Shown piece by piece: positions 6,809-10,960 of a stretch of DNA of 14,223 bases (the stretch's first letter is position 1; each line of letters opens with the position of its first letter). A program made the position numbers and the translations under genes. Origin of the DNA: a virus; the UHGV virus genome UHGV-0099328. One strand, 5' to 3'. The notes beneath the pieces were generated by a model. That model saw only the letters and a program-made list of their open reading frames with translations, had not been told where the DNA came from and made no database searches.

Positions 6809-7606
<798 letters not shown>

Positions 7607-7692: not shown

Positions 7693-8598
7693 ATGTCGAT
7701 TAACAGCAATAGCGAATCCCTGCATCAAATGCAGCTTTTCCCTGTAGTAGAGGTTGTTTCTGATGATATTCCTATGGGCGTTCTCAATGATGGAACTCCT
7801 TACCTAACTCTCTACGGTCTCGCAAAGTTATGCGGCATTGATGACACGCCACTGAGGGTGTTCACATCAAACTGGAACACAGAGAAAAACAAACCCAGAG
7901 GTCAAAAAGTAGCTGCGTATTTAGCTGAGAAAGGGTTTCATAACGTCGAAAAGCTATACACTCGCGTTTTAAATAGCTCAAACGTGGAAACTCATGCTTA
8001 TCCTGACTATGTTTGCATGGCTATCCTCCGTTACTACGCTCTAGATGCCACCAATTTTGATAGGTCAGTCGCAATAGGTAATTTTGTTCGCTTGGCTGAG
8101 TACACGCTTAAGCGAATGATTTATGAAAAGTCAAATTACAACCCAAATGCTTCAATAGATATCTCATTCGAGAACTATAGAGCAAGGATTAAGCTAAACG
8201 ATCAGATACCGACAACTCATTTTGCAGTATTCAGAGAGATAGCTGACATTGCCATGAACCTGATCGGAGGAGGATTCCCAATGGATGACACCACATCTTT
8301 GGATGGAAGTGTTGGAATTCACTGGGGAAAGTATTGGACAGCTAATGGGCTATCTGAGAAATTCGGGGAAAGGGTGCAGTACCCACATTTATTCCCCGAA
8401 AATTACAGGCAGTCAGCTGCAAATAAGCATATAACAGCTTGGATTTATCCTATTGAGGCACTTGGCGTGTTCAGAAAATGGCTACACGATAATTACGCAA
8501 TGGAAAAACTGCCAAATTACCTTGGGAACAAAAAGATTAGTAACGCCTCCGAGCTATTAGAGTCGATAAAAAAACCAGCACTCCCAAATAAGCATTGA
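7693..8598 (+). CDS. Hypothetical protein in the rexA-rexB position; candidate prophage defence / superinfection-exclusion factor
   Basis: 301-aa ORF immediately downstream of and co-oriented with cI, followed by an intrinsic terminator and then oL/pL. It is unrelated to RexA or RexB and looks AT-rich compared with cI. The N-terminal segment PMGVLNDGTPYLTLYGLAKLCGIDDTP loosely resembles KilA-N/Bro-N DNA-binding domains (from memory). Confidence 0.7.
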   Translation: MSINSNSESLHQMQLFPVVEVVSDDIPMGVLNDGTPYLTLYGLAKLCGIDDTPLRVFTSNWNTEKNKPRGQKVAAYLAEKGFHNVEKLYTRVLNSSNVETHAYPDYVCMAILRYYALDATNFDRSVAIGNFVRLAEYTLKRMIYEKSNYNPNASIDISFENYRARIKLNDQIPTTHFAVFREIADIAMNLIGGGFPMDDTTSLDGSVGIHWGKYWTANGLSEKFGERVQYPHLFPENYRQSAANKHITAWIYPIEALGVFRKWLHDNYAMEKLPNYLGNKKISNASELLESIKKPALPNKH

Positions 8599-8636: not shown

Positions 8637-8786
8637 GCCTAACGCCCCCAAAAAACGCATAACCAATTGTATTTATTTCAAAATTAATAGATACAACTCA
8701 CTAAACATCGCAATTCAGATCTCTCGATCACCTTCCCAATCCACACAACCCTGCAAAAAATAAATCTATATAAAAAACATACAGAT

Positions 8787-8856
8787 AACCATCTGCGGTG
8801 ATAAATTATCTCTAGCGGTGTTGACATAAATACCACTGGCGGTGATACTAAGCACA
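8787..8856 (+). promoter_or_regulatory. oL3-oL2-oL1 operators and pL promoter
   Basis: 17-bp operator sites at 8787-8803, 8807-8823 and 8831-8847 (AACCATCTGCGGTGATA, TATCTCTAGCGGTGTTG, TACCACTGGCGGTGATA). pL -35 TTGACA (8821-8826) and -10 GATACT (8844-8849) with 17-bp spacing. Confidence 0.85.
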
Positions 8857-8888
8857 TCAGCAGGACGCACTGACCACCATGAAGGTGA

Positions 8889-8919
8889 CGCTCTTAAAAA
8901 TTAAGCCCTGAAGAAGGGT
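8889..8919 (+). promoter_or_regulatory. nutL (boxA + boxB)
   Basis: boxA CGCTCTTAAAAATTAA followed by boxB GCCCTGAAGAAGGGT. The boxB stem closes with a G-U pair where nutR in this window (and lambda, as recalled) has G-C. Confidence 0.75.
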
Positions 8920-9117
8920 AGCATTCAAAGCAGAAGGCTTTGGGATTGGATGAATGAGCAGGCTGATGCTCGACCAATGTATAAACAGCGCTCATGGCAA
9001 GCAGTAACCAATCTGCGCCTCAAGACAGCGTCACTGGTAGTGCGGGCGCTCTAACCAGTAAGCCGGGGTTCAGCGCCGGCCATCCAATCACCAAAGCTAA
9101 CTGACAGGAGAATCCAG

Positions 9118-9450
9118 ATGGATGCACAAACACGCCGCCGCGAACGTCGCGCAGAGAAACAGGCTCAATGGAAAGCAGCAAATCCCCTGTTAGTTGGGGT
9201 AAGCGCAAAACCAGTTAACCGCCCTATTCTCTCGCTGAATCGAAAACCGAAATCACGAGTAGAAAGCGCACTGAATCCGATAGACCTTACGGTGCTGGCT
9301 GAATACCACGAACAGATTGAAAGCAACCTGCAGCGTATTGAGCGCAAGAATCAGCGCACATGGTACAGCAAGCCACGCAGTGAAATAGGTGTGACTTGCT
9401 CAGGCCGCCAGAAGCAACGCGGAAAATCAATTCCAGCTTATTACGATTGA
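9118..9450 (+). CDS. N: Antitermination protein N (lambda type, variant C-terminus)
   Basis: 110-aa ORF starting MDAQTRRRERRAEKQAQWKAANPLLVG (arginine-rich boxB-binding motif), preceded by AGGAGA. The last 25 or so residues diverge from lambda N as recalled. Confidence 0.9.
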   Translation: MDAQTRRRERRAEKQAQWKAANPLLVGVSAKPVNRPILSLNRKPKSRVESALNPIDLTVLAEYHEQIESNLQRIERKNQRTWYSKPRSEIGVTCSGRQKQRGKSIPAYYD

Positions 9451-9458
9451 GGTGAGCC

Positions 9459-9596
9459 ATGCTCAAGAAAGTCAAGCGCCGACTTTACAAAGAAGGTAGA
9501 TATTCATGCCAGTTGCCAAAATGCGACACAACAAAATGGAGTGTCGATGATTGGTGTAACTGGATAGATAGATACGGAACTTGGTGGGATAAATAA
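9459..9596 (+). CDS. Hypothetical small Cys-rich protein
   Basis: Not in the ORF track (45 aa). ATG at 9459 preceded by TTGAGGTGAG; translation MLKKVKRRLYKEGRYSCQLPKCDTTKWSVDDWCNWIDRYGTWWDK with three Cys and five Trp. Confidence 0.35.
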   Translation: MLKKVKRRLYKEGRYSCQLPKCDTTKWSVDDWCNWIDRYGTWWDK

Positions 9597-9650
9597 CAGG
9601 TAACTTAAGCGTATTTACTTTCGCAGCAAACCACTTATTTGAGGTGAGAT

Positions 9651-10121
9651 ATGACAAAATCATGGAGCGTACCTTTTCCTGAATCAGAAACTGAACATGA
9701 TGGAATGCCTGTTTTCTGGAGATTCCAGGCGACAGTTGAAGAAGATGGGATAAAAATATTCGCACTTCAATATATAGCTTTTCATCAGACAGAGCATTAT
9801 GCATGGTTGGTTCCTGCGCATTGGATTGTTAATTTTAAACCAGCACCAAATCAGTGGTTACAGGAATGGAAACAAAGGAGAAATAGATATGCAATTAAGA
9901 AAGTAGCAAAAAATGCAGAAAGATCTTTTGCATTCCCAACGAAGAAACTTGCTATTGAAAGTTTATTGCGCCGGAAGAAATACCATTTAATGAGAATAAA
10001 ACAAGATTTGGCTGTTGTATCAACTCTTGTTGATGGGATGAAAAATATTGATACATCAACACCAGATATTGAATATAACTTTGGACACAACCAAGAAACA
10101 GAAAACTGGGTGTTTTATTAG
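9651..10121 (+). CDS. Hypothetical protein in the ral/sieB position between N and cIII
   Basis: 156-aa ORF with the same TTGAGGTGAG ribosome-binding motif as the upstream small ORF. AT-rich; no similarity to lambda Ral, SieB or Ea10 as recalled. Confidence 0.65.
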   Translation: MTKSWSVPFPESETEHDGMPVFWRFQATVEEDGIKIFALQYIAFHQTEHYAWLVPAHWIVNFKPAPNQWLQEWKQRRNRYAIKKVAKNAERSFAFPTKKLAIESLLRRKKYHLMRIKQDLAVVSTLVDGMKNIDTSTPDIEYNFGHNQETENWVFY

Positions 10122-10225
10122 TACGAATAAGCACTGTGTATTCATTCCAACGAGTGAATACACGGAGCAATGTCGCTCGTAACCAAACAGGAGCCGACTT
10201 GTTCTGATTATTGGAAATCTTCTTT

Positions 10226-10250
10226 GCCCTCCAGTGTGAGGGCCTTTTTA
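10226..10250 (+). terminator. Intrinsic terminator upstream of cIII
   Basis: GCCCTC-cagtgt-GAGGGC hairpin followed by CTTTTTAT. Confidence 0.5.
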
Positions 10251-10311
10251 TATGCATACCAATAACGCTTCACTCGAGGCGTTTTCGTTATGTATAAATA
10301 AGGAGCACACC

Positions 10312-10476
10312 ATGCAATATGCCATTGCAGGGTGGCCTGTTGCTGGCTGCCCTTCCGAATCTTTACTTGAACGAATCACCCGTAAATTACGTGACGGATG
10401 GAAACGCCTTATCGACATACTTAATCAGCCAGGAGTCCCAAAAAATGGATCAAACACTTATGGCTATCCAGACTAA
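10312..10476 (+). CDS. cIII: CIII (FtsH/HflB inhibitor)
   Basis: 54-aa product [54 protein letters not shown] starting at the internal ATG, preceded by AGGAG; matches lambda CIII as recalled. The ORF track's upstream extension is rejected. Confidence 0.85.
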   Translation: MQYAIAGWPVAGCPSESLLERITRKLRDGWKRLIDILNQPGVPKNGSNTYGYPD

Positions 10477-10588
10477 ATTCACTATCGCCACTTTTATTGG
10501 CGATGAAAAGATGTTTCGTGAAGCCGTCGACGCTTATAAAAAATGGATATTAATACTGAAACTGAGATCAAGCAAAAGCATTCACTAA
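10445..10588 (+). CDS. kil: Kil (host-killing FtsZ inhibitor)
   Basis: 47-aa product [47 protein letters not shown], overlapping the cIII 3' end in another frame as in lambda. Confidence 0.75.
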
Positions 10589-10663
10589 CCCCCTTTCCTG
10601 TTTTCCTAATCAGCCTGGCATTTCGCGGGCGATATTTTCACAGCCATTTTCAGGAGTTCAGCC

Positions 10664-10960
10664 ATGAACGCTTATTACATTCAGGATCGTCTTGAGGCTC
10701 AGAGCTGGGCGCGTCACTACCAGCAGATCGCCCATGAAGAGAAAGAGGCAGAACTGGCAGACGACATGGAAAAAGGCCTGCCCCAGCACCTGTTTGAATC
10801 GCTATGCATCGATCATTTGCAACGCCACGGGGCCAGCAAAAAAGCCATTACCCGTGCGTTTGATGACGATGTTGAGTTTCAGGAGCGCATGGCAGAACAC
10901 ATCCGGTACATGGTTGAAACCATTGCTCACCACCAGGTTGATATTGATTCAGAGGTATAA
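10664..10960 (+). CDS. gam: Gam (RecBCD inhibitor), short GamS form
   Basis: 98-aa [26 protein letters not shown]... matching lambda GamS as recalled. Confidence 0.9.

Follow-up and report, generated by a model that had tools for sequence, protein, structure and literature searches.

The window analysed here is the whole 14,223-nucleotide (nt) stretch of the virus genome UHGV-0099328, read 5' to 3' on one strand. Its + strand carries the early-left operon of a lambda-immunity prophage, in the order cI-like repressor gene, a gene in the rexAB position, OL/pL, nutL, N, ORF45, ORF156, two hairpins, cIII, kil, gam, bet and exo. The subject of the analysis is the interval between N and cIII, in which an earlier note on this DNA had recognised two open reading frames (ORFs), of 45 and 156 amino acids (aa), as a two-gene insert with a duplicated ribosome-binding motif. 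Both ORFs lie on the + strand at the positions given to them there. The elements on which the argument turns are the following.

9118-9450, + strand: antiterminator N, 110 aa, with the C-terminus ...KSIPAYYD (Pfam N36, 1.6e-26)
9447-9456, + strand: junction copy 1, TTGAGGTGAG, read from the sequence as the N stop codon TGA (9448-9450) together with the Shine-Dalgarno (SD) core GAGGTGA of ORF45
9459-9596, + strand: ORF45, a basic, Trp-rich protein of 45 aa, DUF5484 / T-even gp55.4 family (Pfam PF17583)
9623-9650, + strand: apparent relic of an N 3' end with junction copy 2 (TTGAGGTGAG, 9639-9648), defined by alignment; SD for ORF156 and left edge of the cargo slot
9651-10121, + strand: ORF156, 156 aa, the equivalent of HK97 Gp45 and 933W L0079 (phrog_1636, 2.7e-112 over residues 1-156 of 156)

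Direct comparison with lambda delimits the foreign segment. N is lambda-like through codon 86 (97.9% identity between window positions 9089-9374 and lambda N codons 1-86) and has a variant C-terminus. Positions 9375-10130 have no lambda counterpart and substitute lambda 35103-34046, which comprises the 3' end of N, sieB, orf28 and ral. The comparison thus agrees with the earlier description of a non-lambda replacement in the ral/sieB slot following a divergent N 3' end, whereas the start of the module, put at 9459 in that description, has to be moved upstream to 9375, inside N. The AT-rich character of the insert is likewise borne out, the GC content decreasing from 0.50-0.55 in N (about 0.52) to 0.33-0.40 over 9425-10170. 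Neither protein resembles Ral, SieB or Ea10, as had been claimed: a tblastn comparison with the lambda segment was empty, Pfam and PHROGs assign both proteins to other families, and no match to Ral (PF11058) was obtained.

The motif TTGAGGTGAG is indeed shared by the two ORFs. The window contains exactly two copies, at 9447-9456 and 9639-9648, with an ATG two bases after each. As a bare 10-mer it is weak evidence, at least two matches being found in 46 of 200 shuffles when one mismatch is allowed; its context is more informative. The true N of the window ends ...CCA GCT TAT TAC GAT TGA, with the stop codon inside copy 1, and this copy is exact in 61 of 73 ORF45 loci, the remainder differing only within the SD. 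At copy 2 the sequence AGC AAA CCA CTT ATT TGA (9625-9642) reads SKPLI-stop. It is identical to the true N 3' end of HK97 and of lambda-type-N prophages in which N abuts ORF156: in HK97, in 933W and in those prophages N ends ...GGC AGC AAA CCA CTT ATT TGA (GSKPLI-stop), the TGA of which lies inside TTTGAGGTGAGATATG, the SD plus start codon of ORF156. The two junction copies align over ~27 nt with two small indels, and are therefore homologous rather than convergent. The same relic plus SD (~30 nt; junction sequence CAGCAAACCACTTATTTGAGGTGA) is found upstream of orf28-ral in lambda and phi458, the relic is present in ~65 of 75 ORF45 loci irrespective of the next gene, and several breakpoints lie immediately 3' of TTTGAG. 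The reading frame of ORF45 continues into the relic in Bas106 and 8 other loci, where it terminates as ...RIYFRSKPLI-stop. On these alignments, the repeated motif is an N-stop/Shine-Dalgarno junction that is present twice, the second time as a relic, and not the signature of a two-gene system. The earlier suggestion that the motif marks a shared module or coordinated translation is thereby given up.

ORF45 encodes a basic peptide of 5.7 kDa, which matches Pfam DUF5484 (PF17583) with 46.7 bits against a gathering cutoff of 27 (residues 5-42 on positions 3-41 of the 43-position model) and phrog_1871 with an E-value of 1.4e-22. Homologues were found by tblastn in 1037 phage records, ~1026 of which are T-even-like phages of Escherichia, Klebsiella, Shigella, Yersinia and other hosts. 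There the gene is annotated as 55.4 and shares ~45-55% identity with ORF45 (~50% for gp55.4 of T2 and RB32). The residues K6, R7, L9, K11, G13, Y15, P20, K21, T24, W27 and W32 are invariant among the lambdoid, T2, RB32 and Klebsiella-phage members, giving the scaffold KR.L.K.G.Y....PK..T..W....W. Over codons 1-38, the ratio of nonsynonymous to synonymous polymorphism (pN/pS) in 75 prophage copies is 0.17 in frame versus 1.86 and 0.80 in the other two frames, and the ORF is intact in 73 of the 75 copies. By all these signs ORF45 is a real, conserved gene with a coding signature. The earlier description of a Cys/Trp-rich protein holds for tryptophan and fails for cysteine as a family feature. 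The three cysteines of ORF45 are replaced in gp55.4 of T2 and RB32 and in the Klebsiella-phage homologues. A reading as a zinc finger or small zinc-binding protein was considered and rejected, as there are only three cysteines and no conserved Cys/His ligand set, and cysteine is absent altogether from the T2 and RB32 proteins.

Of 5426 complete E. coli genomes, 145 contain ORF45 DNA, and in the RefSeq E. coli genomes that carry it no coding sequence is annotated at this position in 40 of 40 cases among the matches listed; the same is true of phi458. The missing annotation is a systematic gap for a small gene that Pfam recognises. Several variants of its 3' end were seen. In some prophages (P0038) the C-terminus is fused in frame to ...SEYTEQCRS, a sequence that in the window lies just downstream of ORF156 (comparison with 10048-10182); this implies that a deletion has taken out ORF156 and that one of its breakpoints falls within the 3' end of ORF45. 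Different junctions are seen at this place in P0036 and P0039. In addition, the last 30 residues of an annotated DNA polymerase I of Pectobacterium phage Possum (L008, 1501-1590) weakly match residues 13-42 of ORF45 (43% identity, E 5e-3), a similarity that may reflect a fused or wrongly joined gp55.4-like ORF or be due to chance.

To establish whether the two genes travel together, their neighbourhoods were compared in lambdoid loci from IMG/VR, in 'best 80' samples that give approximate co-occurrence fractions. ORF45 follows N in all 78 of its loci, always with the variant N 3' end. This is true even where the N-terminal part of N is only ~40% identical, so that ORF45 and this N 3' end move as a unit. 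The gene after ORF45 is ORF156 in 14 of the 78 loci, Ral in 35 and neither in 30, one locus (L067) having Ral and then ORF156. Conversely, ORF156 directly follows N in 73 of its 80 loci, 40 times with a 933W-type and 33 times with a lambda-type N, and ORF45 is present in only 3 of the 80. Named phages show the same arrangements, with N-ORF156 in 933W, Stx2-86 and HK97, and N-ORF45-Ral in phi458. A contiguous N-ORF45-ORF156 stretch occurs in ~50 of the 5426 complete E. coli genomes. The two are separated in E. coli A21005 by an Nmad5 (nucleotide-modification-associated) gene, which lies just upstream of ORF156. In the regions examined, a DUF5484 neighbour was never found beside the distant ORF156 homologues, nor an ORF156-like neighbour beside T-even gp55.4. 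ORF45 and ORF156 are independent, swappable accessory genes and not an obligate pair, and the defence or toxin pair that had been proposed does not survive this independent assortment.

ORF156 is 99.4% identical to HK97 Gp45 and 100% identical to 933W L0079, Stx2-phage 86 orf57 and many other Stx-phage copies. It also occurs in phi24B, BP-4795, Min27 and many Stx1a/Stx2a phages, and its DNA is found in 598 of the 5426 complete E. coli genomes (~11%). Relatives at 55-85% identity come from Pectobacterium, Cronobacter, Brenneria, Rosenbergiella and others. Among 1.84 billion representatives, a profile search matched 87 proteins, most of them 130-160 aa long apart from fragments of close relatives and two false positives, the long proteins P0073 and P0087, which were rejected as repeat or low-complexity matches. 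The family shares the pattern ...G...ET...K...RFAF.TK..A...L..RK...L.HL...F-D. Among its 73 members (ORF156 and 72 relatives) no match was found to Pfam (E<=1e-3), NCBIfam or PADLOC, and the PHROGs to which members belong all carry the label 'unknown function'. Searched on its own against PADLOC, ORF156 gave one sub-threshold match to Cas1_II (E 0.018) and ORF45 none. ORF156 is thus not a characterised housekeeping protein. In the literature on DUF5484, gp55.4, HK97 gp45, L0079/933W, the protein accessions and the PHROG identifiers, no paper on the function of either gene was found.

The AlphaFold2 model of ORF156, based on an alignment of 73 sequences, has a mean predicted local distance difference test score (pLDDT) of 95.7 and a predicted template modelling score (pTM) of 0.82, superseding an earlier model from 20 sequences with a pLDDT of 60. 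The predicted fold comprises a three-stranded antiparallel sheet (residues 19-55), two short helices, a short strand (83-86), a long helix (98-130) and an extended, conserved C-terminal tail. The charge is unevenly distributed, with an acidic β-sheet N-terminal part, a very basic helical centre (isoelectric point 10.9) and an acidic tail. A sequence-profile search of the Protein Data Bank (PDB) gave no match, and the 14 structural matches to the model in BFVD are all uncharacterised phage proteins. For the two proteins taken together, PADLOC, Pfam, NCBIfam and the PDB yielded nothing beyond the DUF5484 assignment of ORF45 and the sub-threshold Cas1_II match of ORF156.

Homologues of ORF156 are spread widely across temperate and apparently virulent phages, and all of them are uncharacterised. 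In NX263, Bas81, LIET2 and VLCpiS10a they stand among early or DNA-metabolism genes, with no lysogeny genes in the fetched regions. On two lambdoid contigs a 43%-identical homologue is flanked on one side by kil/recombination genes and on the other by an N-like gene, which was called on one of these contigs. The distant homologues repeatedly adjoin, or lie near, genes for ParB-like proteins and DNA methyltransferases (L098 3989-4798; L017 3989-4798; L015 4436-5194; L188 1-1968 and 4424-4936; L016 2465-3181; L005 3054-3677), an anecdotal association that may hint at a DNA-modification or partition-like connection.

The elements that bear on the expression of the two genes, and those that border the insert on either side, are listed below.

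6893-7606, + strand: cI-like repressor gene (ORF list)
7693-8598, + strand: homologue of the abortive-infection protein BstA, 301 aa, in the rexA/rexB position between the repressor gene and OL/pL (phrog_6287, 6e-133; PADLOC BstA, 1.3e-105)
8821-8849, + strand: putative pL promoter (TTGACA, 17-nt spacer, GATACT) inside a lambda-type OL, the sole sigma-70-like site in 8700-10500
8889-8919, + strand: nutL, boxA CGCTCTTAA and boxB GCCCTGAAGAAGGGT, read from the sequence within a lambda-identical block
10131-10253, + strand: lambda-homologous spacer, equal to lambda 34045-33923 by direct comparison
10226-10243, + strand: terminator-like hairpin followed by a T run (hairpin scan); the homologous hairpin in HK97 is labelled a putative terminator after gene 45
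10264-10283, + strand: second terminator-like hairpin, just upstream of cIII (hairpin scan)
10299-10357, + strand: cIII thermoregulator RNA element (Rfam RF01804, 88.5 bits, E 9e-22), at the start of the conserved right flank of cIII, kil, gam, bet and exo

In a consensus scan of both strands of 8700-10500, pL is the only promoter-like site, and both ORFs lie downstream of it and of nutL. This is in keeping with the early expression from pL that the earlier note had assumed, and ORF45 and ORF156 would be transcribed from this promoter. The site at 8889-8919 we take to be nutL from knowledge of lambda and from the Nutl feature of NC_001416. Because it is intact, N-modified RNA polymerase should, by analogy with lambda, carry transcription from nutL across both ORFs and past the hairpins at 10226-10283 into cIII. 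ORF45 may be translated by ribosomes that terminate on N, which are well placed to reinitiate because the SD of ORF45 holds the N stop codon; for ORF156 the relic junction would simply serve as a strong SD of the ordinary kind. Both genes would be silent in the lysogen and switched on within minutes of infection or induction. The simplest history, with which all alignments are consistent, is that ORF45 was ancestrally inserted into an N-stop/SD junction, duplicating ~25 nt, and that homologous recombination at the relic later exchanged the downstream gene, the result being ORF156 in this prophage, orf28-ral in lambda and phi458, and other genes at other loci.

The N-cIII interval is a variable slot, with N and cIII/kil as conserved flanks between which ORF156, orf28-ral, Ea10, Nmad5 and other genes alternate, and as such it is an accessory region in the sense of Silas et al. 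(bioRxiv 10.1101/2023.04.06.535777). Of the ~200 accessory regions that were inspected manually in that study, the 'Ral' region ranks second (Supplementary File 2), in line with the hotspot that the earlier note had recognised at this position. The 200-gene screen reported there includes neither ORF45 nor ORF156, and orf184, which comes from the Ral region, is a different protein of 107 aa.

The interval is probably a cargo slot of the lambdoid pL operon which in this prophage holds two independent accessory cassettes. Both may encode soluble factors of the early lytic cycle, kept silent by repression in the lysogen. Such an early accessory role is most likely, and is favoured over prophage-encoded defence because homologues occur without lysogeny genes in the fetched regions, both proteins are hydrophilic and no independent promoter is apparent. 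Several points weigh against this reading. The co-occurrence fractions are approximate and the 80 sampled ORF156 loci all encode an identical protein, while 14 of the 78 ORF45 loci do carry ORF156, so that occasional functional cooperation is possible. In the AT-rich segment, a promoter that is weak or not of the sigma-70 type could escape a simple consensus scan. That ORF45 is coupled to N is suggested by the geometry of the junction, and what follows about nucleic-acid binding and counter-defence draws, with low confidence, on charge distribution, position and neighbours.

Of the other explanations, the one nearest to the earlier note takes ORF45 and ORF156 as a single two-gene module, such as a toxin-antitoxin or defence pair or a counter-defence complex, co-translated by way of the shared motif. 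The two genes are adjacent and co-directional in the window, in Bas106 and in the ~50 E. coli genomes, and the same strong SD precedes both with identical spacing. Such a module is nevertheless very improbable: the genes assort independently in both directions (14 of 78 and 3 of 80), Nmad5 in A21005 and Ral in L067 show that other genes can intervene, homologues of each gene elsewhere lack the partner, the motif is accounted for as an N-end relic, PADLOC yields nothing beyond the sub-threshold Cas1_II match to ORF156 (E 0.018), and no promoter besides pL was found in 8700-10500 by a scan that weak promoters could escape. It is hardly credible that ORF45 is a chance ORF in the spacer after N, although it has only 45 codons, is not annotated in RefSeq E. 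coli (40 of 40 among the matches listed) or phi458, and is truncated or fused at the 3' end in some copies. Its score above the DUF5484 gathering threshold, ~50% full-length identity to the annotated gp55.4 of more than 1000 T-even-like phages, frame-specific substitutions (0.17 versus 1.86 and 0.80), strong and correctly spaced SD, and intactness in 73 of 75 loci refute this as far as sequence can show.

That one or both genes are expressed in the lysogen for defence or superinfection exclusion, as functional analogues of lambda sieB, is suggested by their occupation of the sieB slot and by the defence cargo in which this prophage is rich, with the BstA abortive-infection gene in the rexAB slot. 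This too is improbable, as the only promoter-like site is pL, which the repressor shuts off, and the ORFs are co-linear with pL, whereas NC_001416 puts sieB on the opposite strand. Moreover, homologues of ORF156, and likewise gp55.4, are carried by phages that are virulent or appear to be, for which defending a lysogen brings no gain, none of the 73 ORF156 family members matches PADLOC, and both proteins are hydrophilic (grand average of hydropathy -0.59 and -1.2). For ORF156, a possible if doubtful alternative to host-directed counter-defence is that it serves as a DNA-metabolism or DNA-modification helper or regulator, working with the replication, recombination or partition-like machinery of the phage. 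In favour of such a helper, a ParB-like gene adjoins the homologue in Bas81, NX263 and VLCpiS10a and shares its operon in L188; genes nearby encode Dam or other DNA methyltransferases; also nearby are those for DNA polymerase A, dCTP deaminase, an exonuclease and a PD-(D/E)XK protein; the Nmad5 gene is just upstream of ORF156 in A21005; the lambdoid gene stands upstream of kil, gam, bet and exo; and the centre of the protein is strongly basic. These associations are, however, few and heterogeneous, with no single conserved partner, early operons are full of DNA-handling genes anyway, and ORF156 is dispensable in lambdoid phages, lambda having no such gene and many prophages carrying Ral or another gene instead.

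Within the preferred reading, that of two independent early lytic cassettes, the basic helical core of ORF156 and the recurring DNA-handling neighbours weakly indicate that the protein might bind nucleic acid, or else a DNA-handling protein of the host or the phage, and act as a counter-defence factor or DNA-metabolism helper. ORF45 presumably binds a conserved enterobacterial target, and this likewise is proposed with low confidence. A more specific picture, offered tentatively, is that ORF156 could be an early counter-defence or host-takeover factor that binds DNA, RNA or a DNA-handling host protein and has a fold unrepresented in the PDB, which would make it the first member to be characterised in a widespread phage protein family, and that ORF45/gp55.4 could, separately, inhibit a conserved enterobacterial target as a miniprotein common to T-even and lambdoid phages.

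Among known systems, the closest to ORF156 are HK97 Gp45 (AAF31125), 933W L0079 and Stx2-phage 86 orf57, which share 99.4-100% identity over 156 residues. In these phages, too, the gene stands between N and terminator/cIII/kil in the operon and is preceded by the same SD junction; there it abuts N, whereas in the window ORF45 and the relic N end intervene. The counterpart of ORF45 is gp55.4 of T-even phages (T2, T6, RB32, JS10 and others), with 43-45 aa, ~50% identity and the pattern KR.L.K.G.Y....PK.DT..WSV.DW...ID..G.W. It differs in its location, in the 55.x cluster near gene 55 and nrdH rather than at an N stop junction, and in its cysteines, three in the lambdoid copies and none in T2 and RB32. 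According to one preprint, the gp55.4 transcript is among those of early-to-middle infection functions that are still abundant in Tmn-arrested T2 infection. The orf28-ral cassette of lambda (restriction alleviation) occupies the same slot, has the same ~30-nt relic-N/SD junction upstream and is expressed early from pL, but its products show no sequence similarity to ORF45 or ORF156. As for SieB, its gene next to N is physically replaced by the non-lambda segment, and it has neither similarity to the two proteins nor their orientation, being encoded opposite to N in NC_001416, whereas ORF45 and ORF156 are co-linear with pL. The genome papers on HK97/HK022 and on HK620 reportedly describe mosaic 'boundary sequences' at lambdoid gene junctions. 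The junction found here resembles these as a short conserved sequence at a gene boundary beside alternative, unrelated cassettes, and differs in that the boundary is concretely identified as a duplicated N 3' end with its stop codon plus the SD of the next gene.

The feature is ordinary lambdoid mosaicism involving two catalogued but uncharacterised genes. An adjacent pair with a shared motif in a defence hotspot is a tempting false lead, which is removed once the arrangement is recognised as mosaicism. Pinning the recombination joint of the N-cIII cargo slot to the duplicated N stop/SD junction aids the automatic delimiting of cassettes in thousands of prophages. A conserved 45-codon homologue of T4-type gp55.4 has been missed by annotation in every RefSeq E. 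coli genome inspected. HK97 gene 45, which would be expressed right after N, offers a tractable entry to a broad, uncharacterised phage family whose predicted fold is confident and has no solved relative; if it should prove to be a counter-defence or DNA-handling factor, this would bear on the biology of Stx phages.

Some further observations concern the neighbouring genes. On L180, a related lambdoid contig, a BstA_C protein is likewise paired with an ORF156 homologue downstream of N. Around the promoter, window positions 8749-8944 are 97.4% identical to lambda 35689-35494 by direct comparison, and the leader from nutL to the start of N (8945-9088) is not lambda-like and takes the place of lambda 35493-35390. 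The stem of boxB GCCCTGAAGAAGGGT (8905-8919) is closed by a G-T pair, in place of the G-C pair of lambda boxB. Two antisense ORFs, 9472-9804 and 9952-10257, were discarded because they have no family support; the former crosses a recombination joint.

On the right-hand side, an inverted repeat at ~10137-10162 lies within the lambda-homologous spacer, and from 10254 on the window corresponds to lambda cIII and kil. Relative to lambda and 933W, the ssb-like gene ea10 is cleanly missing at 10253/10254; the junction is the same as in Stx2-phage 86 and is flanked by the two terminator-like hairpins. Further downstream, the long form of Gam is apparently split, the ORF at 10543-10695 ending out of frame with the 98-aa short Gam (10664-10960), and the annotation of Stx2-phage 86 shows the same split as two gam coding sequences.

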